A stretch of DNA of 41,426 nucleotides from a virus (Duplodnaviria > Heunggongvirae > Uroviricota > Caudoviricetes). The notes below the pieces were generated by a model. That model made no database searches, was not told the origin of the DNA, and was given only the letters and a program-made list of their open reading frames with translations. This document shows, in pieces, positions 1,612 through 41,426 of the stretch. The number at the start of each line of letters is the position of its first letter. The stretch's first letter is position 1. The stretch lies in IMG/VR virus record IMGVR_UViG_2711768022_000004. One strand, 5' to 3'. The position numbers were made by a program, and so were the translations under genes.

Positions 1612-2207
1612 GTAAGCGTGCAGCAAGAACCGTATTGACGGGAATGTGTTATTCAGTCGGCAGTGCTACGCGCCAGGGGAGCAGTTCGCCGACCCGGTTT
1701 ATCGGCCAGTCGGCTATGACGTCAAGGACATAGCGGAGGTAGCTTTCTGGCTCCACTCCGTTCAGTTTGCACGTCCCGATCAGGCTGTACAGCAGCGCTC
1801 CCCGCTCTCCTCCATGATCCGAACCGAAGAACAGGTAGTTTTTGCGGCCCAGACTGACCATCCGCAACGCATTTTCAGCGATGTTATTGTCCGCCTCAGC
1901 CCAGCCATCATCTGCATAGTACGTCAGCGCCGGCCACTGGTTCAGGGCATATGCGAACGCTTTCGCCAGTTCTGAGTGTCGCGACAGGGTTTTCATCTTT
2001 TCACGCAGCCAGCTTTCCAGGGATTTCAGCAGCGGTTTCGTTTTCAACTGACGTTCGGCAAGGCGCTGTTTCAGCAGGAAGATGTCGTCAGAAGAGATGT
2101 CGTTCATAAGCCCGTATTTTACCGGGCTTATTCTGTGACAACCAGGATAAAGAGATTTACAGCATGGTCAGGGAGGTCAGCAGCCGCTTAGGCTGTCTAT
2201 AGCGCGG
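1612..2207 (-). mobile_element. IS66-family insertion sequence, right-hand portion (terminal repeat plus 3' end of transposase gene)
   Basis: GTAAGCG at 1612-1618 resembles IS66-family terminal repeats (from memory); transposase C-terminal fragment 1649-2107; frame open upstream to about 2167. Confidence 0.55.
1649..2107 (-). pseudogene. IS66-family transposase (TnpC/orf3) C-terminal fragment; about 1 kb of 5' coding sequence absent
   Basis: 152-aa translation contains IAENALRMVSLGRKNYLFFGSDHGGERGALLYSLIGTCKLNGVEPESYLRYVLDVIADWPINRVGELLPW, matching the conserved C-terminus of IS66 transposases; no N-terminal part in the window. Confidence 0.75.
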
Positions 2208-2213
2208 CGATTT

Positions 2214-2280
2214 TTTTGATACCGATTTGCATTTCATTTGATACCGCTGAAAAACGCCGATACGCAACTTATTTGATACT
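2214..2280. repeat. prophage right-end transposase-binding repeats (attR-like)
   Basis: Three direct copies of the core TTTTGATACC / ATTTGATACC / ATTTGATACT at 2214-2223, 2236-2245, 2271-2280, in inverted orientation relative to the copies at the other end. Confidence 0.55.
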
Positions 2281-2325
2281 AAATCGGCGCTTTTCTTTTG
2301 AGTTTTAGAATGAGTTTTTAAGCGT

Positions 2326-3063
2326 TCATTCACTCTCTTTCAAACCAGTTTTAACTGTTTGTGGTTTTGGGTAAGGCTGGACTTTGAATAGCTTTGTGTT
2401 AAGGCGTTTTCTGGCTCTCTTGTCCAGAAACCGGATGTAACGAAACTGACGGAATTTATGAACACTGGCTCTGTCGATATTAGCCCGCAGATGTTCACCT
2501 CGCTGTCCTCCTCGTTTGATTGCATTCTTGCAAATCTCGTGATACCACTCGCCATCAAGTTCATAGAATGTTGTTTCATGACTGCCTACATAATCAAAAT
2601 TGCTTGCCTGGTACACGACACCAAGACAGCCACAACGCTCATCTGCAAACGACTGAACCCACTGCACCTGCGGATAAAGTTGTCTGATTAGTTTGAGCGC
2701 GTAACTGATTGCCCTTGATTCGGAGTTTCTCGGCATACAGTCATGCAGCCATAACCGGTTAAGCTCCATATATTCGCGGTTCTGCGTGCCAGTTACGACG
2801 CGTGCACCATTGTTTGGATTAAGGGCATAACCCCATTGCATTACGCCAACCAGCTCCCGTTCTGAAAATATGCCCAGATGAAGGTAGGAATTATTTACGA
2901 AACGATGGCTGTAATGTTTATTGACGACGACCAGCCGGGCCAGCCAGCAACTTATTGTCTCAACCCGTAACTCACGGGAGCCATAACCGACGATATTGTC
3001 GTTATAGTGAATAAGTTCAGGCGTGCTGATGATACGGGATGTAACTTGCTTTCTGTTCCCCAC
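2326..3063 (-). CDS. mom: Mom-like DNA modification protein (start uncertain; GTG at 3063 assumed, frame open to 3258)
   Basis: Immediately downstream of and overlapping a Com-like zinc-finger ORF at the prophage right end, as in Mu; about 245 aa if started at GTG 3061-3063. Confidence 0.6.
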
Positions 3064-3217
3064 GACAGGATTTCCTTGTGTATGTGGGGTGCTCTGTGGC
3101 GCTCTGAGATGTGATTTGATTGAGGGTTTTACAGCGCGGACATTTAACTTCCAGATAACTGAAGCTGGCTCGTGCCAGTAGCTTGTTACAATGTCGGCAC
3201 CGTATGTTTCGATACAT
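3017..3217 (-). CDS. com: Com-like zinc-finger translational activator of mom
   Basis: [35 protein letters not shown] has the C-x2-C...C-x2-C pattern and resembles Mu Com (IRCKNCNKLL...RCPRCK); AGGAGG Shine-Dalgarno upstream of ATG 3215-3217. Confidence 0.7.
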
Positions 3218-3260
3218 GGCCGCATAACCTCCTGCTTTGTTGTTGATATCTTTATCACTC

Positions 3261-3350
3261 AATCGATCGACAAAAACGATCGATTTGATTTATTTAATTG
3301 ATACAACAAATAACACGAAATGTCATTAGCGAAAATTTATGAGTTTGATC
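3261..3350 (-). promoter_or_regulatory. candidate mom-operon promoter/regulatory region with GATC cluster
   Basis: Perfect 9-bp inverted repeat AATCGATCG(N7)CGATCGATT at 3261-3285 carrying two GATC sites (3265, 3278), third GATC at 3347; lies 45-130 nt upstream of com start. Confidence 0.35.
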
Positions 3351-3473
3351 ACTAATTTTAAACGGTGCTGTAACGCATAAGTGCTGAATGATTGTACATT
3401 TGAATACCGCAAAGCAAACAAATCAACTAATTTATAGAAGTCAATTGGTTAATTGCCAGCGTAAGAGGCTGCT

Positions 3474-3767
3474 ATGGACAATCATGTAACGACGAGAAAT
3501 CGAAAAATGATTGAAAATGCGGAAATCTATAATGATTATTTTTCCGATTATTCAGATGCCTGCAAATACAGTTCGAGTGCGGGAGAGTTCATATGCTTCA
3601 ACTTTTTTATTAAATCTTATGTTTTTCCTCCACAGCAAGAAGATGGAGGTGTGCCACCTCCTGAAATCACTTTGCACCGTATAGCCTCCGTCTCAATGAT
3701 GGAGCAACAGGCTAATGAGCTGTATAGCATTCTGGGAACGATTCTACAAAAGCGTGAATCGGACTAA
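3474..3767 (+). CDS. hypothetical protein (cargo gene, opposite strand to the operon)
   Basis: 97-aa ORF with AAGAGG Shine-Dalgarno; embedded in AT-rich DNA between com and the esterase-like gene. Confidence 0.45.
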   Translation: MDNHVTTRNRKMIENAEIYNDYFSDYSDACKYSSSAGEFICFNFFIKSYVFPPQQEDGGVPPPEITLHRIASVSMMEQQANELYSILGTILQKRESD

Positions 3768-3934
3768 TGATACCGGTTCATTTGCCTGCCCGGATGGGGA
3801 AGCAGGATTGACTGCTCCATAAGCAGCTATATTTCTGAATACGAAATACTATCCAGCGATTACATATGGCTGGATAGCGGCAAAGATGTTTTCATTAGTG
3901 TCAAACCGGCAGAGGACACCACCGGTTTGTATTG

Positions 3935-4189
3935 TTACATCATGGTACTGTCAGTTCCGGGCTGAGCCGGGTCTGGTTGCTCTGGCTGCGCGTCGGTTTT
4001 CGGCTCATTATCAGCATCACTGGCCGCAACTGCTGGCCCAATAAGTTTTGCCAGCACTTCATCAACGTAAGTGTCGATTTGTGCCTCAAAATCCTTGCGG
4101 ACCTGCGCTTTCAGCAACTTATTTACTTCACCGGAATACAGTGCCTGTTTTACCAGGTCTTCAGTGACGGTGCCTTTAATTTCTGGCAT
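3935..4189 (-). CDS. hypothetical small protein with acidic Pro/Gln-rich C-terminus
   Basis: 84-aa ORF with strong GGAGG Shine-Dalgarno (reverse complement of 4195-4199). Confidence 0.5.
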   Translation of the reverse strand: MPEIKGTVTEDLVKQALYSGEVNKLLKAQVRKDFEAQIDTYVDEVLAKLIGPAVAASDADNEPKTDAQPEQPDPAQPGTDSTMM

Positions 4190-4224
4190 GTATATCCTCC
4201 TTATGCGGGAATAAAGCCCTGCAA

Positions 4225-4407
4225 TCAGGGCTGGGTCGGGTCTTTTGGGAGCGGAGTTACCTGCGCTGTTTTACTGAGTTTTTCAGCTGCTGCGTCCTCA
4301 ATTTTGCGGCGAACATAATTTCTGATGGCCTTATAACCACCACTCACCAGATATAACGCACATACTGCCGTGCAGAAATACAATAAAATAAGCTGTAAAA
4401 ATGTCAT
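4225..4407 (-). CDS. small membrane protein (single predicted transmembrane helix followed by a charged tail)
   Basis: 60 aa from ATG 4405-4407: MTFLQLILLYFCTAVCALYLVSGGYKAIRNYVRRKIEDAAAEKL; GGGAGGG Shine-Dalgarno upstream. Confidence 0.5.
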   Translation of the reverse strand: MTFLQLILLYFCTAVCALYLVSGGYKAIRNYVRRKIEDAAAEKLSKTAQVTPLPKDPTQP

Positions 4408-4422
4408 TATCCCTCCCAATTA

Positions 4423-4449
4423 TTGACATGGTGTTGACACCGGTAATAT
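4423..4449 (+). promoter_or_regulatory. candidate sigma70-like promoter on the plus strand
   Basis: TTGACA at 4423-4428 (second TTGACA at 4434-4439) and TAATAT at 4444-4449; spacing 15 bp, suboptimal. Confidence 0.3.
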
Positions 4450-4503
4450 CTGTTAGGTAAAAAGGTGCACTGCATTTTTTGCTTTGGATATAACGATCTT
4501 TTT

Positions 4504-4544
4504 GCCGCCGGTTTCTTGTTTTCCCTTACCGGCGGCATTTTTTT
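4504..4544 (+). terminator. rho-independent terminator (plus-strand orientation)
   Basis: 9-bp GC-rich stem GCCGCCGGT / ACCGGCGGC around a 15-nt loop, followed by T7 run at 4538-4544. Confidence 0.6.
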
Positions 4545-4551
4545 ATCCTGC

Positions 4552-6606
4552 TTACGCGTTATTCACTTCCACCACGATACTGTCAATCAGTACCGGGTAA
4601 GTCGCATTTTTAGTGATATCGGTCACGCGCAACTTGTCTGCCGTAAACGTGCCGACCGGAGACTGCGACAGCATGAATGGTGTCCCGTCCTTACCATCAA
4701 TGACCGGCGTCACCTCAATACTGTTGTTACCGGCAAAACGGAAGCCCAGCGTATGCCATTCGTTATTAAATGCGCCGAATGACCCCAGCTTCGTGTTCTG
4801 CGCCGTGTTTCCTTTGTGATACATCACGTTAAGGTCTGTGGCATCGCTCTGTACGTAGAACGATGCCAGCAGGTTATGACCGGCATTTCCTTCCAGAGTA
4901 ACCCCTTGCGGCAGGGCAGAAACCGGCCAGTACAGCGCCAGTGCGTACTGATTAGCCGTAAGCGCGCCATCGAGTTTAAAACGACAACTGACAAGACCAC
5001 CTTTACCCAGCAGGTCCGCACCATTACCAGCATCATGCTCAAGGTACCAGGGGGCTCTTCCTGTTTCCTTGGTCAGTTTCATTGCCTTACCCCCGCTGGC
5101 TCCGGCATCATCCACGATTTGAGCCTTGCCACCTCCGGCAGCCCAACCCTGTGGTGTCAACCGTCCTTCAGACTCAGATGCCCGGTAAGCAAATAGCGTA
5201 CTCATCGTCGTGGTGTCTGCGGGTGGCGTGGACGGTTTTGATGGTGTATCAGGTGACGGCTTCTCATCCGGTGGTGTCACGGTCTGCCCACGCATCAGTT
5301 CAGCCGTGCGCCCTGCATGGAGCATAATAGCTGAGGCCAGACGGTCTGAAATGACGCCCCTGCGTGCCCATGAGCTGAAATGGCTGTCACGCTGTGTCGA
5401 AACAAAACTGCCCTGGGTTCGGGATGCTGCACCGTAATACCCGACAGCCACAATATCCGGGTCTTCCGCCGGAGCATTCGTTGGCGTGCTCTGTCCATTC
5501 TCATCCGTCAGGAACGGTACAAAGAAAATTTTCTGTGCTTCCTTGCCTTTGTAGCCACCGTATACTGCCTCATATTTATCGGTGCCAGCGTTTTTCCAGT
5601 AATACGTGGTATCACCGCAAATCCACGGCACCGTGGTGGCATTTCCACTCACGCACTGCGCAGCAAGCGGAGCCAGGTCAGTTCTGAACTGCTGAACCAT
5701 GGCCGTGAATAAACTATTATGCTGCTGGCTTCCTGAGGCAAGGTCTGCCTCTCCCTGCATCCAGACCACAGCCAGAAGTTTGTTTTTCGGGTTTTTCGCC
5801 AGCGCGACTTTGGTGCGGCTTACCAGGTCCTGATACAGAGGTTTACCGGCCCCCCAGCGTGAAGAATCAGCGGAAGCACCGCTGGCCTCACTGAATGAGC
5901 CGTCGGCTCCAGTGGTGAATGCTGACCCGCCACGACAACAGGGCACCAGAAGTATCCCGGCATTCTGTGGGATATAGGGAAGCAGTTTTTTGGCAATATG
6001 CAACCCCTGACCGACAGTCCCGTACTGGCCTTTTGCCAGATCAGCTTTCGGGTGGTTTATCCCGCTCATATCCTGAACATCATGCAGGCAGTGGTCTGCC
6101 GGAATGATGTCGTTGTATGTACACGACGTACCGTTGGGCGTTACCGTACTGCGGCGTGCCAGTTGCTTAATGCGTGGGTCCGGGCGGTCAAACGAATCCG
6201 GTAACGGCAGCCCCTCGCCGTAGGCCATGCCATTTGACTGACCCGCGAGAATGACAACAAAGTAATATTCCGGCTCTGAACTGCTGCCATTCGTGCTACC
6301 GGAAGGCCCGGCGTTATCCGGTGCATTCCAGTCGGAGGGCGTGAGCGTTCCGGCCACGTCAGATGTGATTGGAATGATGCCAGTCACGCCTGAACTGGTG
6401 ATTTCTGCACTGGGATTACCGGATACCGGCATTACCCATAATGGCTCTTTCGTGCTGAAGCGGATCACGCAGTCTGCGAAGGTGATCCCCCCTTTATTAC
6501 CCGAAGGGCGGAAAGGGCTTTCAATAAATGCCACCGTGCCACCGGCAACCTTGACTGAAAACTCTCCGGGCATGGCGGAGAGCATTTTCCACTTGGAGTC
6601 TGACAT
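4552..6606 (-). CDS. SASA/SGNH-type carbohydrate esterase-like protein (sialate O-acetylesterase-like), prophage cargo
   Basis: 684 aa; VVILAGQSNGMAYGEG resembles the GQSNM motif of sialate O-acetylesterase-type domains; no obvious signal peptide; sits between invertase and com-mom. Confidence 0.55.
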   Translation of the reverse strand: MSDSKWKMLSAMPGEFSVKVAGGTVAFIESPFRPSGNKGGITFADCVIRFSTKEPLWVMPVSGNPSAEITSSGVTGIIPITSDVAGTLTPSDWNAPDNAGPSGSTNGSSSEPEYYFVVILAGQSNGMAYGEGLPLPDSFDRPDPRIKQLARRSTVTPNGTSCTYNDIIPADHCLHDVQDMSGINHPKADLAKGQYGTVGQGLHIAKKLLPYIPQNAGILLVPCCRGGSAFTTGADGSFSEASGASADSSRWGAGKPLYQDLVSRTKVALAKNPKNKLLAVVWMQGEADLASGSQQHNSLFTAMVQQFRTDLAPLAAQCVSGNATTVPWICGDTTYYWKNAGTDKYEAVYGGYKGKEAQKIFFVPFLTDENGQSTPTNAPAEDPDIVAVGYYGAASRTQGSFVSTQRDSHFSSWARRGVISDRLASAIMLHAGRTAELMRGQTVTPPDEKPSPDTPSKPSTPPADTTTMSTLFAYRASESEGRLTPQGWAAGGGKAQIVDDAGASGGKAMKLTKETGRAPWYLEHDAGNGADLLGKGGLVSCRFKLDGALTANQYALALYWPVSALPQGVTLEGNAGHNLLASFYVQSDATDLNVMYHKGNTAQNTKLGSFGAFNNEWHTLGFRFAGNNSIEVTPVIDGKDGTPFMLSQSPVGTFTADKLRVTDITKNATYPVLIDSIVVEVNNA

Positions 6607-6682
6607 CGTCTTTTCTGCCTGTTTCTGAATTAAACAGAGTCAGAATAGCGACCGCTGAAAAATATGTGTTTTGCGGAAATTC

Positions 6683-6711
6683 AAAAAAGCGTCACGGTAC
6701 TTTTGGTGACG
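6683..6711 (-). terminator. rho-independent terminator overlapping the invertase stop codon
   Basis: On the minus strand, stem CGTCAC / GTGACG with 10-nt loop followed by CTTTTTT; invertase stop codon lies inside the stem. Confidence 0.5.
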
Positions 6712-7258
6712 GAGCTGGTGAGGCAGGAAAATAACGATAAAGGGTGGAAAGGCCAATATCAAATATCAGTGCGATTTGTTTACGGGACTCGCCATTAGCC
6801 AGCAAACGGGCGATTTGCTCCCGCTCTTTCTCTGTCAGTTTCTGAGGTCTGCCGCCATGACGCCCCTGAGCACGGGCAGCAGCAAGACCCGCGCGTGTAC
6901 GTTCAATAATGAGTTCCCGCTCCATTTCCGCCAGCGCGCCCATTATATGGAAAAAGAAACGTCCCATGGGAGTGGATGTATCAATATTGTCCGTAATGCT
7001 GCGGAAGTTAACGCCGCGTTGCCGGAGTTCTTCTGTTAAAAGGACAAGGTGCTGCATACTGCGTCCAAGGCGATCCAGTTTCCAGACCAGCAGGGTATCC
7101 CCTGGCCGGAGTCGCTTTAATGCGCGTTTAAGTCCGGGACGCTCCCTTGTCTTACCGCTTATTCTGTCTTCGAAAAACAGCTCACATCCTGCACATTCCA
7201 GCGCATTTCTTTGTAGCGCCGTATTCTGGTCATTTGTTGACACCCTGATATACCCAAT
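6692..7258 (-). CDS. gin: serine DNA invertase (Gin/Pin/Cin/Hin family), 5' end runs into the assembly gap
   Basis: Translation IGYIRVSTNDQNTALQRNAL...GDTLLVWKLDRLGRSMQHL...PMGRFFFHIMGALAEMERELIIERT is near-identical in pattern to Gin; frame continues upstream of the listed GTG start into the N-run. Confidence 0.85.
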   Translation of the reverse strand: MGYIRVSTNDQNTALQRNALECAGCELFFEDRISGKTRERPGLKRALKRLRPGDTLLVWKLDRLGRSMQHLVLLTEELRQRGVNFRSITDNIDTSTPMGRFFFHIMGALAEMERELIIERTRAGLAAARAQGRHGGRPQKLTEKEREQIARLLANGESRKQIALIFDIGLSTLYRYFPASPAPSPKVP

Positions 7259-7488
7259 NNNNNNNNNNNNNNNNNNNNNNNNNNNNNNNNNNNNNNNNNN
7301 NNNNNNNNNNNNNNNNNNNNNNNNNNNNNNNNNNNNNNNNNNNNNNNNNNNNNNNNNNNNNNNNNNNNNNNNNNNNNNNNNNNNNNNNNNNNNNNNNNNN
7401 NNNNNNNNNNNNNNNNNNNNNNNNNNNNNNNNNNNNNNNNNNNNNNNNNNNNNNNNNNNNNNNNNNNNNNNNNNNNNNNNNNNNNNNN
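7259..7488. other. assembly gap (run of 230 N); true length unknown
   Basis: Literal N characters in the sequence. Confidence 0.99.
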
Positions 7489-7489
7489 G

Positions 7490-7660
7490 GGAGCAGAGAA
7501 CAGGCAGGTAATGTACGGTGGGGCATATTACTCTGCGTACGGTAATGTTATGGCAGGCCTGCAGATTGACAGTAAAGTTGATGCTTCAAACGATTTTATA
7601 GCATTCAGACCCCTGCAAAAATTAGTCGGAGGTACATGGATTACGGTATCTCAGTTATAA
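7490..7660 (+). CDS. alternative tail-fibre variable C-terminal segment (Sv'-like), 5' part lost in the gap
   Basis: Plus-strand frame ending ...FRPLQKLVGGTWITVSQL at 7660; ending resembles the C-terminus of the minus-strand fibre (...[10 protein letters not shown]); followed by a tfa gene on the same strand. Confidence 0.6.
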   Translation, partial: GAENRQVMYGGAYYSAYGNVMAGLQIDSKVDASNDFIAFRPLQKLVGGTWITVSQL

Positions 7661-7711
7661 ATAGTCAGTAAATAATATATTTTAAAACAGATTTATTTCC
7701 AGGAGGATTTT

Positions 7712-8233
7712 ATGGAACTAAAAAATATAACCCGTTATTATCCTGAAAATATGCCATATGGTAATAATGTTCAGTATTTCCAGAGTGAAGATGGTAAGGA
7801 TTTCTACGAATCCCTGCCATTATTCACCAAAAAATATAAACTTTGCATAACACCTGACAGCGGCGTTATCTGCTCAATATCACAGGACGCCTCGGCGCTG
7901 TATCCTGCGGGGTTTTCTGTGGTTGAGGTCGATGAACTCCCTGAAGGCACGGATATTTCAGGAAACTGGAAGTTTGATAATGGCATAATCTCCCGTATTC
8001 CGGTTAACTACGCAAGAAAACTGGAAGCAATGCGCCAGTCATATCTTAATCAGGCATATGAAAAAATTAATGACTGGAGAACGGAGCTACAACTGGGCAC
8101 CATCAGCGATGAAGACAGAGCAGCACTTACCCAATGGATGGCATACATCAGTCAGGTGAAGAAAATGGAACTACCCGCCATTAAAACAGAAGCTGAATTT
8201 AACGCCATTAAATGGCCTGAGCAGCCACAGTAA
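7712..8233 (+). CDS. tail-fibre assembly protein (P2 G / Mu U-like)
   Basis: 173 aa; DASALYPAGFSVVEVDELPEG and the C-terminal ISDEDRAALTQWMAYISQV region resemble P2 gpG-type chaperones; AGGAGG Shine-Dalgarno. Confidence 0.8.
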   Translation: MELKNITRYYPENMPYGNNVQYFQSEDGKDFYESLPLFTKKYKLCITPDSGVICSISQDASALYPAGFSVVEVDELPEGTDISGNWKFDNGIISRIPVNYARKLEAMRQSYLNQAYEKINDWRTELQLGTISDEDRAALTQWMAYISQVKKMELPAIKTEAEFNAIKWPEQPQ

Positions 8234-8236
8234 TAA

Positions 8237-8256
8237 AGAAGGCCGGAAGGCCTTCT
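8237..8256. terminator. hairpin between convergent tfa and fibre genes (possible bidirectional terminator)
   Basis: AGAAGGCC-GGAA-GGCCTTCT perfect 8-bp stem in the 31-bp gap between the two stop codons; flanking U-runs are weak. Confidence 0.4.
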
Positions 8257-8264
8257 GAATATCA

Positions 8265-9146
8265 TTATATACTTGCAGCCGTCACCCATGCTCCATTTAA
8301 CAGATACTGCAACGGCCGGTAATACACGCCGCCGACGTTATCTGCCGTATTCTTACCGACATCCTGTACTTTAATTCCGGTAAGAACATTGCCGCCCCCC
8401 AGATTCAGATCCCAGCTTTCCCATGTTCCGGGCATATGTGCGGTCACCGACCCCAGTCTTATGGCGGTTACTGTTCCTGATGAGATAGTGATATCCTGCG
8501 TCCCGTCAAAGGGAACACCATTAATTGTGTGGGCATTTGCCAGCCTGTTCGCGGCAACGGCGGTGCCGTCCGATGGCAGGGCATTCGCCGCCCTGTTTAC
8601 CGTTTCCCGTAAACCGACGTTATCGATAAAAGCCCCTTTATCCGGAATGTCTGCGCCGTTCTGCTCCCTGCGCAGGTAACGGTTATCACCTTCGCTTTTG
8701 CTGTAAACATCCAGATTATTACGGGCGGTTCCCTTATTCTCCAGGTCGGCGAGATTCTGATCCTTCGCCAGGGCATTAACGTCAGCGGGACCAAGACTGT
8801 TTTTTGTGGCAAGCGTCCCCAGACCAAGATAACCACGGGCCAGACGCTGGGCCTCCGCACCGGCATCAGCAATTTCTTTCAGGTTATTTTTCCGGGAAAA
8901 GGCATTCGCAGCGATAATGGCTTTAATGGACAGCGTAAGCTGGTTTAACTGCGCCTTATCCGGCTGAATACTGGCTTCAGCCAGAATATTCAGCAGTTCG
9001 GCCTGGAGAATATTCAGCCAGTCCTGACCAATCCAGCTGATACCTTTTTGTCCGTCACCTTCGGTAAACCAGGTGGTGGTATTACTCTGCGCCGGTGCCA
9101 GCGCAGGCATATTCGCCACGCCGGAATTATTATCAACATGAAACAT
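8265..9146 (-). CDS. tail fibre protein (constant N-terminal part plus currently expressed variable C-terminal part)
   Basis: 293 aa; N-terminus [18 protein letters not shown]...[30 protein letters not shown] typical of Mu S / P2 H-type fibres; contains the gix-like site. Confidence 0.8.
8604..8629. other. gix/hix-like crossover site for the serine invertase, inside the fibre gene
   Basis: TTCCCGTAAACC-GA-CGTTATCGATAA: two 12-bp half-sites in inverted orientation around a 2-bp core, resembling gix (TTCCTGTAAACCGAGGTTTTGGATAA, from memory); falls at fibre codon about 173. Confidence 0.55.
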
Positions 9147-30721: not shown

Positions 30722-30722
30722 T

Positions 30723-31798: not shown

Positions 31799-31810
31799 TA
31801 TCGTGGCTCC

Positions 31811-31840
31811 ATAAAAAATGGGCGGTGTTACCGCACCGCC
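31811..31840 (-). terminator. candidate rho-independent terminator/attenuator just upstream of gemA
   Basis: On minus strand GGCGGTG-CGGTAA-CACCGCC followed by CATTTTTTAT; 12 nt later GGAG and the gemA start. Confidence 0.45.
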
Positions 31841-31868
31841 ATGTCAATTAACATAAAAGGAAAAATCT

Positions 31869-32376: not shown

Positions 32377-32377
32377 A

Positions 32378-33394: not shown

Positions 33395-33397
33395 GCA

Positions 33398-34446: not shown

Positions 34447-34591
34447 GATTTATTTCCCCACCACATTATTAATGACGATATAAACGTATTTCATATTTCT
34501 TAACCCTTATTTTCTGTTTTCAGGCGCAAGCAGTCCCCTGACGCGAGCGCCATAATTAAAATGAAGTGATATTTAATTGATTAATGCGGTG

Positions 34592-35122
34592 TTATTTATT
34601 CAGTCCGGCGTCCTGTTCAAAAGGCTCGACATAAAAACTTTCAGCGCCTTTATTCACCTTGATACCGGCAATGCCTTTCACAGCATCCGGCTCCGCCAGG
34701 ACGGCTTCCTTGTTCACTTCCTCTTTCGTGCGGATGAAACGCTCAAGCCCCATACGGCGCAGCATTTCAATCACACCTTCCACATCACGGCTGACGCTGC
34801 ATGATGGCGTTCCCAGCCGCCATGACACCGTTCCGGTGGTCAGATTGGCTGTTTTGGTTTTGCCGCCGTTCGTCAGCTCATCACGGTTGGTTTTGCACCA
34901 GTCCTGAATCCCTTTAAAAAGCACTTTGATTTGCTTTTTAAGATTTTCAATCTGCGGCGTATAACGGGCGGTGATTTCTGCCACTTCGTCATTCATCGCC
35001 GTTTCCAGGCGCAGCGCCTCTCGCTGAATATCTCCCAGGGTGCGGATATCACGGCTGACTTCTTCCCGGGTCTGCGGTGCCGCCTCGGCTGCGGCCTTTA
35101 ATTTTGTAACGCGTTTAGCCAT
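34592..35122 (-). CDS. gam: Gam-like host-nuclease inhibitor (DNA end-binding protein)
   Basis: 176 aa; LRLETAMNDEVAEITARY...NRDELTNGGKTKTANLTTGTVSWR...RFIRTKEEVNKEA...FEQDAG closely resembles Mu Gam. Confidence 0.8.
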   Translation of the reverse strand: MAKRVTKLKAAAEAAPQTREEVSRDIRTLGDIQREALRLETAMNDEVAEITARYTPQIENLKKQIKVLFKGIQDWCKTNRDELTNGGKTKTANLTTGTVSWRLGTPSCSVSRDVEGVIEMLRRMGLERFIRTKEEVNKEAVLAEPDAVKGIAGIKVNKGAESFYVEPFEQDAGLNK

Positions 35123-35133
35123 TTTGTTTTTCC

Positions 35134-35427
35134 TTATTGCAGTGTGCCTGATGCTTTATGCACGCGGTGGCGTTTAATGATGGCATCCGCTCCAAAAGAC
35201 TGTGCAGATGCCTGAAATTCCGCTGAGAGAAACTGAATAATTGCAGGACTGTGATACTGGAGAATACTTGCATAAACGTCACAGAGTGACGTCGGCCTGT
35301 TATCCGTATCACGTTCTGTTTTCACATCCACTCCAATCTTTTCATGCACTTCAACACAGTCATTGCCTGCCAACTTTTCGTCATGCGAAACATGATTAAA
35401 TTCAAAAATAACGCGTACTTTGCTCAT
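35134..35427 (-). CDS. hypothetical small protein, paralogue B of a tandem pair
   Basis: From ATG 35425-35427: MSKVRVIFEFNHVSHDEK...; shares MSKV-R-IFE N-terminus with upstream gene. Confidence 0.45.
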   Translation of the reverse strand: MSKVRVIFEFNHVSHDEKLAGNDCVEVHEKIGVDVKTERDTDNRPTSLCDVYASILQYHSPAIIQFLSAEFQASAQSFGADAIIKRHRVHKASGTLQ

Positions 35428-35431
35428 GGAA

Positions 35432-35704
35432 TTACCCCTGTTGATTAAATTCATTACCGTTAATAACCCCGGAAGCCATGCCTCTGTCTTTCATGAATGC
35501 ACTGGCTTTCATTGCCACAAACTCTGCGAAGTTTCTGCTTTCTGCCAGCATAACCACCCCAAAAATCATGGCGGGTCCATTATCTTTCTTCTTTATTCCG
35601 GTTGAACGTATATCCAGACTTACCCCTCTGTGCGTGCTGCCATCAGAGTTTTTGCAGATAACATCTTCCTTGTATTCGAAAATAATGCGTACGACTTTAC
35701 TCAT
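35432..35704 (-). CDS. hypothetical small protein, paralogue A of a tandem pair
   Basis: MSKVVRIIFEYKEDVICKNSDGSTHRG...; AT-rich. Confidence 0.45.
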   Translation of the reverse strand: MSKVVRIIFEYKEDVICKNSDGSTHRGVSLDIRSTGIKKKDNGPAMIFGVVMLAESRNFAEFVAMKASAFMKDRGMASGVINGNEFNQQG

Positions 35705-35982
35705 CCTCTGGTCCTCGTTCTGTTTGGATAACTGACCCGGCGTCTAACCTCACGGCAGAACCGAATCATGGCATTAAAGGCTTCTTCCTCCGTCACCGCT
35801 TCCGGTATCCCCGGAACCAGTAACTGCTCCTGTTCATCACGTCCATGACGCGCCATAACCTCAATCACATGCCGTACCGTGGCAGGCTTTCCGGCAACTA
35901 TCGGCAATGCACCTTCCGGCAGGACGTAACCAAACTCAATAAGACCACTCGACCACGCCCATGCAATGAGATTTTTTTTCAC
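35701..35982 (-). CDS. hypothetical early-region protein
   Basis: 93-aa ORF. Confidence 0.4.
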   Translation of the reverse strand: MKKNLIAWAWSSGLIEFGYVLPEGALPIVAGKPATVRHVIEVMARHGRDEQEQLLVPGIPEAVTEEEAFNAMIRFCREVRRRVSYPNRTRTRG

Positions 35983-35983
35983 C

Positions 35984-36250
35984 TCACACCTCCCAGTAAA
36001 CCGTGCAGCCGCTGATGCGGGTGGCCTTCACACGGCGGCGCAGGCCGTTGGTCTGTATGGTGATTTCAATTTCACCGGTTCCCTGCACGTTGCCTACCGG
36101 CGGCGTGGTTTTCAGTGCAAAACGTTGCGGATAGCGCTTACTGCGTTCCAGTACCGCACCGGCAAGTTCGGTCAGACGGCGCGCGCTGTTCAGGGAGTCG
36201 AATAAATTCATTTTGTTACCGCAGGATTGCATATTCATATAACACCTCAT
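35984..36250 (-). CDS. hypothetical early-region protein
   Basis: 88-aa ORF; start uncertain. Confidence 0.4.
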   Translation of the reverse strand: MRCYMNMQSCGNKMNLFDSLNSARRLTELAGAVLERSKRYPQRFALKTTPPVGNVQGTGEIEITIQTNGLRRRVKATRISGCTVYWEV

Positions 36251-36478
36251 TTAGCTGACTTGTTTCGCACCAACAGAACGGCATATTCCGCTGTAAACTT
36301 CTGTCGCACCTTCGCGATCAAGTCCGGCAGATATCACCATTCGTGTGCGGTCATTAAATTCAAAAAGTAAATCGCCACATTCTTTATTTTCGGCCAGTGA
36401 AATCACCTTCACGTTATCGAAATTAACCAGGTAAAAGCGTCCGTAAATATCAGGAATATTAAATACCGCCATAATCAC
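36251..36478 (-). CDS. hypothetical early-region protein
   Basis: 75-aa ORF overlapping the B-like gene end by 4 nt. Confidence 0.4.
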   Translation of the reverse strand: MIMAVFNIPDIYGRFYLVNFDNVKVISLAENKECGDLLFEFNDRTRMVISAGLDREGATEVYSGICRSVGAKQVS

Positions 36479-37416
36479 ACCTGTGAGAGTAATTCAGGGT
36501 TGGTATAAACCTCTTTAAAGGCCGCATTAATATGTTTTTCTGTCAGCGCCGCGCCTTCACCGCTGGCGGTGAGCCACGCCTGGTTAAGCGTATGTGTCAG
36601 AACGCGTAACGCTCCCGGCTTTTCAGCGATAGCCTGCATGACGGCCAGCTCGGCCTCACCACTGATCCCCCACGCCATGGCAATGGCCAGCACATCCGCC
36701 TTTTTGGCCTTGCGAAGTTGTTTTGTACGGGCAAGACGGCTGAACAGGCGCGATAAATCATCAAAGGCGCGGCGTCCACCTTTAAACAATCCGCGCGGGT
36801 TACCAATAAGCACCATCCCGATCCCCGTGGCGTCCTGAATTGCCCGGAGTTGCTCCAGACCGTCAATACCAAGATGATCCGCCTCATCCACAATCACCAG
36901 TCCACGCGTTCCCATCAGGCGACGGCGGATGGCGCGGGATAATGCCCCTTTGTTCGCGCGGGTGTAATCAATCCCCAGCGCATCGGCCAGCTCCAGCAGA
37001 CACTCCGTGACGCTGGAGTGCGCGGGTGACAGGGTGATCATCCAGGTGTTTGGTTGCTCCTGGCAGTAATTACGGGCAGTGGCCGTTTTACCCACACCCG
37101 GTACGCCCACAATAACGTTAATACAGCCCATCAGGCGAACCGCCTGAAACAGTGCGCGCAGCTCCTGGACTGTCTGAGTTTCCACAAACTGCGGCGGTTC
37201 CGGCAGTGCGCTTTGTTTATTCCAGTTCTCATACCAGGAGCGCAGGGAAGCAGCCACAGCAGCGTTATCGCCTTTATATTTTCCCTTACGGAAAGCCGAT
37301 AATGTGCCGTCGGAAATTCCCGCCTCTCTGGCGATGGCATACTGCGTCAGTACGCCGCCATCAATAAGTTCATCAATGGTCTTGATTACATCGTTAATAT
37401 CGGTCATATTATTCAC
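36475..37416 (-). CDS. MuB-like AAA+ ATPase (transposition target-DNA activator)
   Basis: 313 aa; Walker A GVPGVGKT; N-terminal HTH-like region; directly downstream of transposase. Confidence 0.8.
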   Translation of the reverse strand: MNNMTDINDVIKTIDELIDGGVLTQYAIAREAGISDGTLSAFRKGKYKGDNAAVAASLRSWYENWNKQSALPEPPQFVETQTVQELRALFQAVRLMGCINVIVGVPGVGKTATARNYCQEQPNTWMITLSPAHSSVTECLLELADALGIDYTRANKGALSRAIRRRLMGTRGLVIVDEADHLGIDGLEQLRAIQDATGIGMVLIGNPRGLFKGGRRAFDDLSRLFSRLARTKQLRKAKKADVLAIAMAWGISGEAELAVMQAIAEKPGALRVLTHTLNQAWLTASGEGAALTEKHINAAFKEVYTNPELLSQV

Positions 37417-37489
37417 CTCGCTTGAGACAGCATTCTCCGAGACTGAAACCTCAAATAACCTGAGTCACCCCTCGGGTTATTTTTTTATT

Positions 37490-39577
37490 TCAGGCCAGCG
37501 GATCACTTTCTTTTAATTTCGCTTCGAGCAGTTGCAATCCCCGCTGGAAATTACGCTCGTATTCTTCATCAGGTTCATCGTCAGCGACCGGTTGCTGAAC
37601 GGTCACCGTATTACCCACAGGGCGGTATATGTTTTCCAGCCAGGGCTCCTGCGGCTTGTGCTCCAGCACGTTGACAACCTCATCCTCGGCATCACGGATT
37701 TTTTCCTCTGCGCGTTTACGCATGCCTTTAAGGCGCTGCTGCTGTTTGTAGTATTCCGCGCTGACAGGGAAGGCTTCGCGTTTATTGCCGTCCCATACCG
37801 CCTCGCAAATCACGCTGCCATCCGGGCGGCGCACGGTAATTCGTTCGGCATCATGAATGTCATAGCTGATAAGTACCTTACGGCCATGCTCGTCACGCAG
37901 CTCGGGCGCGTAGTAAATATTATTCAGCCAGCGTATTTCACAGCGTCTTACAGGGCGCTCCACCATCGGCCGGAACATATCCCGCAGTTCAACATCGGAC
38001 AGCCATTCAATTTCCGTGTCCTCTTCCGCCAGGCGTTTTTTTCTGAACTCCGCCGGGCTGTAATGTTTACCGTTCGGCTTCATGGGTAATTCATCGTGCG
38101 GCCGGTTGTTGTACCACTCAACACCGTCACGAATGGCATCAATCAGTTCAGACCAGGACGGTAAATCACGCATCGCTGACTGCTGCCGGGCGTTCAGCCG
38201 TTTGCCCTGTTGCAGGGCACTGAATGCCGAGCGTAAATCGCGGTTGGTTTTACGTAACGTCTCGCGATCTGCTCCTTTCCCGAAATAGGTGCGGTATTTA
38301 CGGGCTATGCGCATCGGTAATGTGCGGTTAAGCCGTTCGATAATGCCCCGTCCCTGCGGATTACCGGCAATCCCTGTCGGGTGATTAATCCCCAGTCGTG
38401 GCAGTATCCCCACAATCTCCTTATCCAGGACGTCGGCGGTTTCCCCGGAGCCATTATCCGAGTAATACAGAAACGGTTTGCCATGATGGCGAATACCGTG
38501 CTGTATGGCACCGGCTACGGCGAAAACATTTTCAGCCAGGTCAAGGCTCCAGCCCACCACAAAGCGCGTGCCACCGTCGATAACAAAGGTCACTTCCGGT
38601 GCGAATGGCCGCCCGTGAACCGGGTGCGCGCATTTCAGCTTCATGCCGTGACCGTCACCAATCCAGACATAATTCACCGGCATTCTGGACCAGTCGCGGC
38701 GCGTGAATCCCTCAAGCTGACGGTATTCACTGCCAGTTACCCGGCCTTTTTGTTTCACCACTTCCGGCAGTTTCTTCATTGCGCGGCGAATGGTGTCATA
38801 AGAGGGCATGATATCGAGCATATAAGGCTCATCAGCGTGCCGGTGCTGCCATTCAGCAACAAAATCCTCGTAAGCCTCGGTCATTGGTCGGCCGTTTGAC
38901 TGGCGATACTGCGCCAGAAATTCGGGCAGCCAGTTAATATCTTCGGCTTTTATTTCCTGGCGTTTACCCGGTGCCAGTAAAAGCAGGCGTTCAGCGGCGT
39001 TCTGTGCCTTGTTAAAGGCCGCAATCCAGCGTTTCAGCGTGATTTCACTCAACGCGCGGCTGTTTCCCTTTTTGGCGTTCGCCGTCTCAACCATTGCCAC
39101 AATGCGCTCGTCCAGTTGTGATCGTGCCAGGCTGTTAACGAGGAACCGGATAGCTTTAGCGCAGCTGAAACCGGGTTGTTGCGTGAATTTCAGCACCTCA
39201 CTGACGATCGCAATGCGTGCGTCTGCCACCTGGCGCTGGTTTTCAGTCAGGGCATTGAGGCGTTCGACCATCAGTTGTGGTGATCCGCGATATGCCTCCA
39301 CCGCATCAACCACGGCAGACGAGCGTCTGGCCTTTGTCACCACCGGAGCCGGTGATTCATCGGCTTTTTGCGTCATCAGTTGCAGGGCATAACGTTCGCG
39401 TAATGCCTGCTGTGTCACTTCAGGTAAACAGTCAATGCTGTATTCAAAACCTTTAGCGCCTTTCTTGCGGCGTCTGCTGGTTTCGCTGGTTGCATACTTC
39501 CTGATTGAATAGCGAACGCCTTGCTCCGTTCCCGGCATCCCCGGTAATCCAACCAGTTCTTTAACTGAAGCAAACAT
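37490..39577 (-). CDS. MuA-like DDE transposase
   Basis: 695 aa; between ner-like and B-like genes; N-terminus MFASVKELVGLPGMPGTEQGVRYSIRKYA parallels MuA N-terminal DNA-binding domain. Confidence 0.8.
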   Translation of the reverse strand: MFASVKELVGLPGMPGTEQGVRYSIRKYATSETSRRRKKGAKGFEYSIDCLPEVTQQALRERYALQLMTQKADESPAPVVTKARRSSAVVDAVEAYRGSPQLMVERLNALTENQRQVADARIAIVSEVLKFTQQPGFSCAKAIRFLVNSLARSQLDERIVAMVETANAKKGNSRALSEITLKRWIAAFNKAQNAAERLLLLAPGKRQEIKAEDINWLPEFLAQYRQSNGRPMTEAYEDFVAEWQHRHADEPYMLDIMPSYDTIRRAMKKLPEVVKQKGRVTGSEYRQLEGFTRRDWSRMPVNYVWIGDGHGMKLKCAHPVHGRPFAPEVTFVIDGGTRFVVGWSLDLAENVFAVAGAIQHGIRHHGKPFLYYSDNGSGETADVLDKEIVGILPRLGINHPTGIAGNPQGRGIIERLNRTLPMRIARKYRTYFGKGADRETLRKTNRDLRSAFSALQQGKRLNARQQSAMRDLPSWSELIDAIRDGVEWYNNRPHDELPMKPNGKHYSPAEFRKKRLAEEDTEIEWLSDVELRDMFRPMVERPVRRCEIRWLNNIYYAPELRDEHGRKVLISYDIHDAERITVRRPDGSVICEAVWDGNKREAFPVSAEYYKQQQRLKGMRKRAEEKIRDAEDEVVNVLEHKPQEPWLENIYRPVGNTVTVQQPVADDEPDEEYERNFQRGLQLLEAKLKESDPLA

Positions 39578-39579
39578 AA

Positions 39580-39810
39580 TTACGCGACCTTACGAATGTA
39601 GCGGCTGGGCCAAATCTCCTCGGGCGGCACCCCCAGGCATTCCGCGATAATCCCCTCATACTTGGGAACATGGCGGTATACCGCGTTGTACAGATTGTTC
39701 TGACCCACGCCAGCTTTACGGGCCAGCGCCCTCATGCTTCCTTCTCTGGCTCTGACTTCCCCCAAAATTCTTTGAGGATGCCAATCAGGCTTAACTTCAT
39801 TTCTCGCCAT
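39580..39810 (-). CDS. ner: Ner-like DNA-binding regulator
   Basis: 76 aa; DWHPQRILGEVRAREGSMRALARKAG...EEIWPSRY resembles Mu Ner (DWHRADVIAGLKKRKLSLSAL...EVIWPSRY). Confidence 0.8.
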   Translation of the reverse strand: MARNEVKPDWHPQRILGEVRAREGSMRALARKAGVGQNNLYNAVYRHVPKYEGIIAECLGVPPEEIWPSRYIRKVA

Positions 39811-39995
39811 GATTCATCTATCCTAAAAAGTTACGAAATTTGATAACTAAACTTAGTTATCAAGTTTGATATAAGTATTGATCCACTTCTGCTTCATGTA
39901 AAGCAAAAAAAACATCTTTCTTTTGTCTATTGTGGATCAATGGTTGCTGACAACACTAAAAGTTAATAATTTCAAATTGATAGGAAGAAAAGAAA
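39811..39995. promoter_or_regulatory. divergent early promoter/operator region between ner and repressor genes
   Basis: Palindrome TTGATAACTAA-AC-TTAGTTATCAA (39840-39863); inverted pair ATTGATCCAC (39877-39886) / GTGGATCAAT (39932-39941); repeated TTGATA half-sites. Confidence 0.55.
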
Positions 39996-40541
39996 ATGAA
40001 CAAGCAAACAACAACATCTCTTTCTTTTCCTGGTGGTAGAAAAGAAAGCATTGCTGAGCGTCTGAAAAGGCTGATTGGCTCCCGCAGCGTCAGAGCTGCA
40101 GCAAGAGATTGGGGGCTTTCATTTTCAACACTAAACAATTATCTGTCTCGTGGCACTGAGCCATCCTTAAGTGTCGCCCTTCAGATTGCGTCTATCGAAG
40201 GAGTAAGTGTTGAGTGGCTATGTGGATTCAGTGATGCATCACAAGTGAATCGGTGTGAGATCAAGGAAAATCAAGATGAAAGCAAGAAGATAATTATGAC
40301 GATTATCAGCGCACTTGATGAAAAAGACTTAGAGCAGCTATCGAAAAATTTGGTTCTGAATGGAGCCAAGTACTTAGCTCGGTTGTTAGAGCCTGAAAAT
40401 CAAGATCTAATCCGCTTAGAAGGAAGGAAAAGAATAGCTGCATTACAGCTTGAAGGTATGTCTGACGAACGCGTCAGAGAGATTTTGGAAGAAACTGAGA
40501 GAAGTCGCAAATCTAACGCGGTAGAACCAAAAGCGGGTTAA
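39996..40541 (+). CDS. prophage repressor (CI/Mu c-type, N-terminal helix-turn-helix)
   Basis: 181 aa; LKRLIGSRSVRAAARDWGLSFSTLNNYLSRG is a helix-turn-helix; transcribed toward the prophage end, divergent from ner-A-B, as in Mu. Confidence 0.7.
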   Translation: MNKQTTTSLSFPGGRKESIAERLKRLIGSRSVRAAARDWGLSFSTLNNYLSRGTEPSLSVALQIASIEGVSVEWLCGFSDASQVNRCEIKENQDESKKIIMTIISALDEKDLEQLSKNLVLNGAKYLARLLEPENQDLIRLEGRKRIAALQLEGMSDERVREILEETERSRKSNAVEPKAG

Positions 40542-40610
40542 TAGCATTAGCCCGCATTTTGCACTATATCGAGTATTTCGCATTGTTTGGAACGCCTTAA
40601 AAGACTAAAA

Positions 40611-40777
40611 CCACAGTATCAAATGAGTTGCCGATTTTATAATAAATGACTAATTATTGCACAATCGGTATCAAATAGACCTTATCCGCACATCTAGCCA
40701 TCACCTGTTTTATTTCAGTATCTTACAGGTGATTTCACCTCCTTTCACTAAACCCCTTGTCGGTATCAAATGATTCA
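40611..40777. repeat. prophage left-end transposase-binding repeats (attL-like)
   Basis: Reverse complements of ATTTGATAC(C/T) at 40615-40624, 40667-40676, 40762-40771; terminus reads TGAATCATTTGATACC inward from 40777. Confidence 0.55.
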
Positions 40778-41098
40778 CCTGGTTATATGTCGCCAGTCGA
40801 TACCTTCCAGCAGCATCGCCAGCTGCGCCTGTGTAAGGAACACTTTGCCATCACGGGCTGACGGCCAGGCGAAGCGCCCACGCTCCAGCCGTTTGGTCAG
40901 GAGGCACAGTCCGTCACTGGTGGACCACAGCAGTTTAACCTGACTGCCGCTGCGGCCCCGGAAAATGAAAACATGGCCGGACATGGGATCGTCTTTCAGC
41001 GCCGTCTGTACTTTCGCAGCCAGGCCGTTGAAGCCATTTCTCATATCGGTGATACCGGCAACCAGCCAAATTTTGATCCCGGAAGGTAACGGGATCAT
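40775..41098 (-). CDS. IS66-family accessory protein TnpB (orf2)
   Basis: MIPLPSGIKIWLVAGITDMRNGFNGLAAKVQ...GSQVKLLWSTSDGLCLLTKRLERGRFAWP matches the conserved IS66 orf2 product. Confidence 0.85.
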   Translation of the reverse strand: MIPLPSGIKIWLVAGITDMRNGFNGLAAKVQTALKDDPMSGHVFIFRGRSGSQVKLLWSTSDGLCLLTKRLERGRFAWPSARDGKVFLTQAQLAMLLEGIDWRHITR

Positions 41099-41426
41099 CG
41101 CTTCAGTTCCTGTATCAGCAGAGTCAGGAGCTTTTCGCTGACATTGCCATTGAAGCGGAGCGTCCCGTGCCGGAACGTTACCTCACAGCTGATACTGAGG
41201 GTTTTCGGGTCCTCTGCGAGCGATTCTGGCTGTTCGGCAGCTGCATCGAGAGTCACAGGAAGTAGCTGGGGGCTCTCTGAAGAAGGTAATAGCTGAGGTG
41301 TACTGGCAATAGCGGACACTACCATTTGTTCTTTTTTTAAGCAGCCATCTGATGATATTTTTCCCTGAAGGCTGCCGGGGAGATATTCCCCAGACGAGAG
41401 TGACGACGCTGACGATTGTAGAAAAT
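41095..41426 (-). CDS. IS66-family accessory protein (orf1), 5' end beyond window
   Basis: Frame open to window edge; overlaps orf2 start by 4 nt as typical for IS66. Confidence 0.6.
   Translation of the reverse strand, partial: FLQSSASSLSSGEYLPGSLQGKISSDGCLKKEQMVVSAIASTPQLLPSSESPQLLPVTLDAAAEQPESLAEDPKTLSISCEVTFRHGTLRFNGNVSEKLLTLLIQELKR

Follow-up and report, generated by a model that had tools for sequence, protein, structure and literature searches.

An Sp18-type Mu-like prophage nested in a decayed IS66-family element of Shigella sonnei, with a transposase deletion older than the prophage

Phages Mu, D108 and SfMu share a lifestyle and a gene order (c, ner, A, B, late genes, invertible segment, com, mom), carry three repeated sites at each end and integrate almost at random with a short target duplication, and the prophage described here resembles them in all these respects. 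Mu duplicates 5 bp of its target and has CA termini, and a Mu-mediated adjacent deletion begins exactly at a Mu end and loses one copy of the duplication. Elements of the IS66 family have terminal inverted repeats that start GTAAGCG and an 8-bp duplication. The closest described relative of our prophage is Sp18 of Escherichia coli O157:H7 Sakai (38.76 kb, compared with 38.59 kb here), for which an invertible host-specificity region has been reported (PMC2669165), and prophages of the Sp18 group differ from strain to strain in insertion site (PMC7430833). Phage B3, by comparison, duplicates 6 bp (PMC8705779).

The window analyzed here, a stretch of 41,426 bp, contains an Sp18-type Mu-like prophage of 38,590 bp on the minus strand (2198-40787) nested in an IS66-family remnant. 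The locus is very probably a pile of independent mobile-element events within a Shigella sonnei prophage remnant, and this reading as a whole explains the data best. The features that surround the prophage are as follows.

1-1611, minus strand: lambdoid prophage remnant, comprising a DUF4376 gene (3' part only) and a tail-fibre gene
423-1595, minus strand: tail-fibre ORF, its 5' end lost to the IS66 insertion at 1611/1612
1612-2197, minus strand: right-hand part of the IS66 remnant, running from the terminal inverted repeat GTAAGCGTGCAG... (1612) through tnpC-delta and the tnpB-tnpC spacer to the final 41 nt of tnpB (2157-2197)
1649-2107, minus strand: tnpC-delta, the native start and codons 1-18 joined in frame to codons 379-512 of a 512-codon tnpC
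2053-2068, no strand: junction of the 1080-bp deletion, the single remaining copy of a 16-nt imperfect direct repeat
2194-2197, no strand: target-site duplication, copy 1, TGTC
40788-40791, no strand: target-site duplication, copy 2, TGTC
40788-41293, minus strand: left-hand part of the IS66 remnant, holding codons 1-103 of tnpB and 199 nt from the 3' end of tnpA
41294-41426, minus strand: terminal part of IS600 (IS3 family), starting TGAGGTGTACTGGC; it cuts IS66 tnpA short and has taken the place of the IS66 left end

The outermost layer is the tail-fibre gene, whose ORF matches the Pfam profile phage_tail_N only from profile position 34 on. Up to position 1611 the window shares 99.1% identity with an E. 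coli tail-fibre gene that has no interruption, and beyond it the two diverge. From there the sequence is that of an IS66-family element of E. coli and Shigella (ISEc8-like by its PGAP label), 98.6-99.6% identical to intact copies, with which it has in common the tnpA-tnpB-tnpC order and the GTAAGCG terminal repeat. Only the right-hand repeat survives, at 1612, since IS600 removed the left end. Unlike intact copies, the remnant lacks tnpC codons 19-378, has its left end and half of tnpA replaced by IS600, and has its tnpB split by the prophage. Most of the DDE catalytic domain is gone (Pfam DDE_Tnp_IS66 covers profile positions 195-283 of 284), and this IS66 copy is a dead remnant. The IS600 assignment follows the annotation of the matched region as an "IS3-like element IS600 family transposase," and IS3-family ORFs likewise adjoin the IS66 remnant in loci L011-L021 of the comparison set.

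Alignment to an intact IS66 copy (L001) shows that both flanks belong to one collinear IS copy with 1080 bp missing. By BLAST, window positions 1606-2068 correspond to L001 2501-2963 (99.6%) and 2053-2197 to L001 4028-4172 (98.6%), whereas 40788-41293, across the prophage, correspond to L001 4169-4674 (98.6%), so that the two flanks abut at L001 4169-4172 with TGTC on both sides. A first-pass annotation of this DNA had rightly placed a Mu-like prophage between IS66 ORFs of the same strand: the ORF at 1649-2107 matches Pfam DDE_Tnp_IS66 and DDE_Tnp_IS66_C and that at 40775-41098 matches TnpB_IS66, both on the minus strand. Several of its boundaries shift, however. About 1 kb of the transposase gene is indeed missing, but the loss is internal to tnpC; the start codon (2105-2107) and codons 1-18 persist, and the ORF at 1649-2107 is thus a fusion rather than the last 152 codons of the gene. 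On that side IS66 sequence does not stop at 2107 but continues to 2197. The prophage does not begin at the stop codon of the second IS66 ORF; it interrupts tnpB 41 nt before its native end (native stop at 2157-2159), and the chimeric tnpB ORF (40775-41098) ends HITR* from prophage sequence, with a new stop at 40775-40777, 11-13 nt inside the prophage left end. Finally, of the 40775-41426 interval assigned to IS66, tnpB and tnpA sequence occupies 40788-41293, and the remainder up to 41426 is IS600.

The position of the tnpC deletion can be read directly. The two BLAST segments on the tnpC side share a 16-nt overlap at the junction, and the deleted stretch, L001 2964-4043, lies inside tnpC and is in frame. 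Intact IS66 carries both copies of the repeat, GTTCGGCAAGGCGCTG and GTTCGGCCAGGCGCTG, which match at 15 of 16 positions and each encode QRLAE. Between the junction and the prophage end at 2198 lie 129-144 bp of intact, collinear IS66 sequence, which take in the start codon of tnpC, the spacer that separates it from tnpB, and the final 41 nt of tnpB.

These observations bear on the mechanism first proposed for the locus, in which the phage transposed into an intact IS66 element and the neighbouring ~1 kb of tnpC was afterwards lost through intramolecular replicative transposition of the Mu type. The loss of that much tnpC close to the prophage right end, and the absence of a 5-bp duplication, fit such a model. 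The flanks do not come from different IS copies, nor does an intact 5' transposase region occur elsewhere; the mechanism fails for other reasons. Nearness to a Mu-type end is the only likeness to Mu-mediated adjacent deletions: the endpoint lies away from the phage end, between direct repeats, and a 4-bp TGTC duplication is intact on the two sides of the prophage. Moreover, the same junction and the exact deleted TnpC protein are found in prophage-free loci (L011-L020) with an uninterrupted tnpB. These empty-site genomes refute the adjacent-deletion model, to which we leave practically no chance.

The empty site itself is directly observed. An exact-protein look-up places the 152-residue TnpC-delta in 457 blocks of the collection, and in each of the ten such places listed an intact 115-residue TnpB lies directly upstream (10/10), with the prophage between them in none (0/10). 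When 2198-40787 and one TGTC are removed from the window, the remaining sequence aligns without gaps to six loci (L011, L014, L015, L016, L019 and L020) over 2832 of 2832 nt at 99.7-99.8% identity. The empty sites read ...TTAGGC TGTC GCCAGT..., with one TGTC and the same deletion junction, as seen for example in L011 and L013. Prophage-free loci, including that of S. sonnei 53G (HE616528.1, L013), share this remnant with its deletion and its truncation by IS600, and their tnpB is uninterrupted; the empty remnant is the state of most S. sonnei genomes examined. Since many prophage-free genomes with intact tnpB share this deletion, it is older than the insertion: the ~1 kb absent from tnpC was lost earlier and independently of the prophage, and the locus is a case of ordinary mobile-element decay. 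As a single-piece match, the deletion junction was absent from 5426 complete E. coli genomes, and an exact scan found none in GTDB species representatives; only the exact-protein look-up revealed it.

The order of events could be reversed only if the prophage were ancestral and had since been removed from the empty genomes by precise excision, leaving one TGTC. Nothing speaks for this directly beyond the coexistence of filled (110 blocks) and empty (457 blocks) states, and we regard it as very improbable. Precise excision of Mu-type prophages is very rare, and empty sites are the majority, 53G included. Sp18 forms no excised circles (PMC2669165), and 53G, an empty-site strain, is tabulated under phylogenetic group II, apart from the group III strains listed there (PMC5447701). 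Even if excision had occurred, IS66 sequence would still separate the tnpC deletion from the prophage.

The nesting of the prophage in the IS66 element is likewise real. Draft contigs do differ beyond 41293, where 18 of the 24 with the insertion junction lead into an intact tnpA followed by IS1 instead of IS600, which indicates that assemblers struggle here and could suggest repeats (IS66, IS600) misjoined into an artefactual nest. Both prophage junctions, however, join unique sequence to the IS66 remnant, and the flanks rebuild the known empty site exactly. The chimeric 107-residue TnpB, specific to the insertion junction, occurs in 110 blocks, including the complete 4.93-Mb chromosome CP176614.1, so the junction is not a one-off assembly artefact; we give misassembly even less credence than excision. 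The tnpA-IS1 continuation could instead reflect a history beyond simple insertion, such as recombination between two IS66 copies.

The prophage is apparently complete. Its ends and the genes that define its type are listed below.

2198-2281, plus strand: right end, terminus TATAGCGCGGCG, then three TTTGATAC(C/T) repeats at 2215, 2237 and 2272
2326-3063, minus strand: mom (Pfam Mom; annotated as 245 aa in E. coli copies)
3017-3262, minus strand: com (Pfam Zn_ribbon_Com)
6692-7243, minus strand: Gin-like serine invertase (Pfam Resolvase with HTH_7)
7712-8233, plus strand: tail-fibre assembly gene of the adjacent segment (Pfam Caudo_TAP)
36475-37416, minus strand: MuB-type ATPase, 313 aa (Pfam Phage-MuB_C, AAA_22)
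37490-39577, minus strand: MuA-type transposase, 695 aa (Pfam Mu-transpos_C, HTH_Tnp_Mu_1)
39580-39810, minus strand: ner-like gene (phrog_769, transcriptional repressor)
39996-40541, plus strand: repressor (c-like, HTH), divergent from the early genes; annotated "transcriptional regulator" in E. coli copies
40614-40787, minus strand: left end, inward terminus TATAACCAGGTGAATCA, with three TTTGATAC repeats at 40761, 40666 and 40614

The Mu-like character of the prophage is evident from a MuA-type DDE transposase and a MuB-type ATPase located at one end beside the repressor and the ner-like regulator. The repressor ORF has a weak match to Pfam HTH_3 (21.8 bits, under the 23-bit cutoff) and occupies the same position as Mu c. 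A Mu-type morphogenesis module is present as well, with large terminase, portal, MuF-like protein, protease, major head, sheath, tape measure, baseplate, Gp48, DNA circulation protein and Gp11, and the segment from 6692 to 8233 is probably an invertible host-range segment. MuA, MuB, ner, com, mom, the invertase with its host-range segment and the Mu-type head and tail module are all held in common with the Sp18 group. Among Sp18 and its relatives (e.g. the FRIK804 Mu-like prophage), copies in 226 complete E. coli genomes match our right end and mom region at 95-100% identity, and the exact Mom protein is listed in 2424 blocks of the collection, where it sits at many different sites. Unlike these matching regions, the immunity region and the left end share only ~79% identity with O157-type copies, and the left terminus, TATAACC here, reads TGTAACC in the O157 and 53G types. 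The phage collection yielded no similarity to Mu-group phages at the DNA level, nor any isolated phage close to the prophage; the only near matches there were Mu-like Sp18-type inserts in two Stx phages, which align at about 90% identity across 45% of the query. Mu-like phages of the Sp18 type are widespread in E. coli and Shigella. In S. sonnei 53G a heteroimmune sibling prophage lies only 1.2 kb off, in the same orientation and beside a 10-nt match to the phage left end; an example of such end-like sequence is CCAGGTGAAT.

We defined the prophage ends from eight copies read at both junctions and from ten more right-end junctions. All eight copies are bounded by 4-bp direct repeats (TGTC, CGTC, TGTT, TCTA, CGTA, CGTC, TGAC and CGAA), and 18 different flanks are seen among the related copies, which shows that these phages insert at many unrelated positions and duplicate a short stretch of target. 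The right terminus is ...CTATA in all copies, and the left is TATAACC or TGTAACC. The TTTGATAC(C/T) motif occurs 7 times in the window against 0.22 expected, and six of the seven lie at the two ends, three at each and in inverted orientation; we presume that these repeats are putative transposase-binding sites. The first-pass annotation was correct that there is no 5-bp duplication, although it missed the 4-bp one. Placing the left end at ...GATTCA (40778), with its canonical CA, would leave 10 bases unexplained, and both the other copies and the empty site put the end at 40787. A 5-bp duplication with one mismatch (CTGTC/ATGTC) was also rejected, since the A, unchanged in every copy, is part of the phage. 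The slightly unusual features of this locus are only the 4-bp duplication and the TA termini: where Mu has a 5-bp duplication and 5'-TG...CA-3' termini, this prophage has a duplication of 4 bp (as in 8/8 copies of the group read at both ends) and 5'-TA...TA-3' termini. These differences count against identity with Mu proper but not against a Mu-like lifestyle. In the literature searched, we found no duplication length for Sp18-type or SfMu phages. Tentatively, Sp18-type phages may use a 4-bp target stagger and a TA rather than CA reactive 3' terminus, at least at the right end, a suggestion that we hold as possible but somewhat doubtful. A weaker hint, given by the nearby sibling prophage of 53G, is that their target choice may also be biased.

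Ordered by parsimony, the history of the locus very probably began when an IS66-family element entered the 5' part of a lambdoid tail-fibre gene. The element then decayed, with tnpC losing 1080 bp in frame between the 16-nt imperfect direct repeats, a configuration that points to slipped mispairing or short-homology recombination as the molecular route, and with IS600 taking away half of tnpA together with the left end of IS66. Finally, within one sub-lineage, a Mu-like phage of the Sp18 type, presumably integrating after infection, transposed into codon 104 of tnpB, duplicating TGTC by ordinary transposition with no loss of target sequence.

Beyond annotation the significance of the locus is small. 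It does offer a general lesson: before a transposable prophage is blamed for a nearby deletion, the flanks should be aligned to an intact copy and an empty site sought. In the present case the two checks reveal plain stepwise decay of IS and prophage, as is typical of Shigella genomes. The chimeric 107-residue TnpB marks one S. sonnei sub-lineage, and the consistent 4-bp duplication provides correct boundaries for annotating Sp18-type prophages. If the 4-bp stagger and TA terminus are indeed used, the Sp18-type phages would offer a natural variant of the Mu transpososome for comparing end recognition and target spacing with MuA.

The gene inventory from PHROGs and Pfam shows a complete Mu-like prophage on the minus strand of the window, with IS66 sequences on the same strand at both sides. 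The nesting described in the first-pass annotation is therefore borne out, as genes of the MuA and MuB type are enclosed by IS66 ORFs at 1649-2107(-) and 40775-41098(-).

Features of the window
423-1595, lambdoid tail-fibre gene (ORF)
1649-2107, minus strand, IS66 transposase, C-terminal third (Pfam)
6692-7243, Gin-like invertase (PHROGs and Pfam)
7712-8233, tail-fibre assembly gene, on the strand opposite to the tail-fibre gene (PHROGs and Pfam)
8265-9146, tail-fibre gene of the prophage
36475-37416, MuB-type ATPase, between the IS66 ORFs (Pfam)
37490-39577, MuA-type transposase, between the IS66 ORFs (Pfam)
between the IS66 ORFs, Mom and a divergent HTH repressor (Pfam)
40775-41098, minus strand, IS66 TnpB (Pfam)
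ner-like regulator (PHROGs and Pfam)
full structural module: large terminase, portal, MuF-like protein, protease, major head, sheath, tape measure, baseplate (PHROGs and Pfam)
Gp48, DNA circulation protein, Gp11 and Com (PHROGs and Pfam)

The opposite strands of 7712-8233 and 8265-9146 suggest an invertible host-range segment fixed in one orientation. Between the Gin-like invertase and com/mom (region 4552-8265) lies a 684-aa protein with a SASA-type carbohydrate esterase domain and DUF6645.

Both flanks were aligned by BLAST to an intact IS66 copy from E. coli Ecol_AZ146 (L001; tnpC 2544-4082, tnpB 4132-4479, tnpA 4476-4856), the check proposed with the nesting, and matched it in three collinear segments.

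Alignment of the window to intact IS66
window 1606-2068, L001 2501-2963, 99.6% identity
window 2053-2197, L001 4028-4172, 98.6% identity
window 40788-41293, L001 4169-4674, 98.6% identity

The absent DNA amounts to 1080 bp inside tnpC, close to the 1 kb first estimated; the loss is internal, and N-terminal residues 1-18 are still present. The deletion is in frame, and the ORF at 1649-2107, previously read as the last 152 codons, encodes a 152-aa product (TnpC-delta) in which TnpC residues 1-18 are joined to residues 379-512. The first two segments share 16 nt of the window, as intact IS66 carries the repeats GTTCGGCAAGGCGCTG and GTTCGGCCAGGCGCTG, 1080 bp apart, of which the window keeps a single copy; both copies encode QRLAE. 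The deletion probably arose by slippage or a short-homology route. The first-pass annotation had instead proposed an adjacent deletion through Mu-type intramolecular transposition, which predicts an endpoint at the phage end. Between the deletion and the prophage, the window retains the native start of tnpC (2105-2107), the tnpB-tnpC spacer and the native stop of tnpB (2157-2159). Nor does the prophage begin at the orf2 stop codon: tnpB itself is split, with the flanks abutting at L001 4169-4172.

To define the prophage, we used both of its ends to search 5426 complete E. coli genomes, 226 of which contain the right end. Matches begin at window 2198 (right end) and cease at 40787 (left end); together with the junction reads, they set the prophage at 2198-40787 (38,590 bp). 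TGTC, from L001 4169-4172, stands on both sides (2194-2197 and 40788-40791), whereas an adjacent deletion predicts loss of the duplication. The first-pass annotation was correct that no 5-bp copy exists, but it missed this 4-bp one, the usual length for the phage group. We read the window copy and seven others at both junctions, and all 8 Sp18-type Mu-like prophages carry a 4-bp, not 5-bp, duplication (window 2194-2201 and 40784-40791; related loci L003-L010 and L025-L040), the other seven being CGTC, TGTT, TCTA, CGTA, CGTC, TGAC and CGAA. The fifth flanking base is not repeated in six copies and is ambiguous in two. Every copy read at both junctions ends on the right in ...TATAGCGCGG (...CTATA), and all copies read start on the left with CCTGGTTATA (window type, TATAACC) or CCTGGTTACA (O157 type, TGTAACC, also in S. 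sonnei 53G). Ten further right-end junctions have the identical terminus and unrelated flanks. The ends are inverted (TATA, 13 nt, TTTGATACCGA), and each bears three TTTGATAC repeats (7 matches in the window versus 0.22 expected). We found no paper that gives the duplication length or these terminus forms for Sp18-type phages. In E. coli JE86-ST05 (NZ_AP022815.1), the best right-end (685996-686598) and left-end (846036-846623) matches lie 160 kb apart, with several places per record, suggesting multiple prophage copies or phage-associated rearrangement.

By exact protein look-up, the assembly collection lists TnpC-delta in 457 blocks. At all ten places listed of these, one being HE616528.1 of S. 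sonnei 53G (PMC5447701), the order is IS600, truncated tnpA (76 aa), intact tnpB (115 aa), tnpC-delta, tail fibre, DUF4376 and IpaH, and no prophage separates tnpB from tnpC-delta. With 2198-40787 and one TGTC taken out, the window becomes a 2832-nt empty site that aligns over its full length, gapless, to six of the ten loci at 99.7-99.8% identity. A single TGTC occurs at every locus checked (L011, L013, L014, L016 and L019), and the deletion junction in L011 and L013 is the same as the window's. The tnpC deletion and IS600 truncation thus predate integration, and nothing was lost on integration. An adjacent deletion should be absent without the phage; with this, all three of its predictions fail, and the model is wrong. 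The deletion junction has no match in the 5426 complete E. coli genomes searched or in GTDB species representatives, which fits an origin within the S. sonnei lineage. The filled site, marked by a chimeric 107-aa TnpB, occurs in 110 blocks, one a complete 4.93-Mb chromosome; over 3.4 kb the window agrees with one such contig at 100% identity, and with the locus on the chromosome at 99.97%.

The IS66 right inverted repeat begins at 1612 (GTAAGCGTGCAG), and the window follows an uninterrupted E. coli tail-fibre gene through 1611 and diverges from it beyond. The last IS66 base is 41293, directly followed by an IS600 end (TGAGGTGTACTGGC...); the IS66 left end is therefore lost. In 18 of 24 draft contigs with the same chimeric TnpB junction, what lies past 41293 is not IS600 but a complete tnpA of 126 aa, the IS66 left end and one end of an IS1 (L022 1-552 and L023 1-458 versus window 41294-41426). 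This continuation could be the assembler's path through the 506-bp IS66 repeat or a genuine IS66 x IS66 recombinant. The host of the IS66 remnant is itself a lambdoid prophage remnant (window 1-1611; L011 6519-11154), which in S. sonnei bears, just past the window's left edge, a resolvase and an ipaH-type effector gene (LRR_TTSS and NEL domains). S. sonnei 53G has a sibling prophage in the tail-fibre gene (L013 7100-12459; point equivalent to window 983/984), which shares the orientation of the window's prophage and lies 1.2 kb from where that one is inserted. Across the A and B genes the sibling matches window 35467-39446 at 99.4% identity, but in the immunity region and left end the identity is only ~78%, so the two are probably heteroimmune. 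The target just beyond the sibling's junction, CCAGGTGAAT, is the same as the phage left end at nt 6-15.

The best account of the observed positions, collinearity, duplication and empty site is a four-step stacking of independent events. IS66 would have entered a tail-fibre gene within a prophage remnant that bears ipaH, and then decayed through the in-frame tnpC deletion via short repeats and truncation by IS600; the dead remnant would have become the common state in S. sonnei, and a sub-lineage would have gained an Sp18-type transposable phage by simple insertion in tnpB with a 4-bp duplication. Precise excision of Mu-type prophages is rare. Because of this, and because Sp18 is reported to form no excised circles (PMC2669165), we infer insertion, not precise loss, as the direction of change.

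The prophage falls into one group with O157 Sakai's Sp18 and the many relatives of Sp18 in E. coli (PMC2669165; PMC7430833), and it shows no close similarity in DNA sequence to Mu, D108 or SfMu. Its way of working is like that of Mu, whereas its duplication is 4 bp rather than 5 bp and its termini are TA rather than CA. Transposable phages are already known to vary in duplication length; that of phage B3 is 6 bp (PMC8705779). Overall, the nesting is real, the locus is ordinary and the deletion mechanism first proposed for it is wrong. Three points remain curious: this phage group has a 4-bp duplication and TA termini, 53G carries the sibling prophage 1.2 kb away, and draft assemblies conflict on the continuation past 41293.
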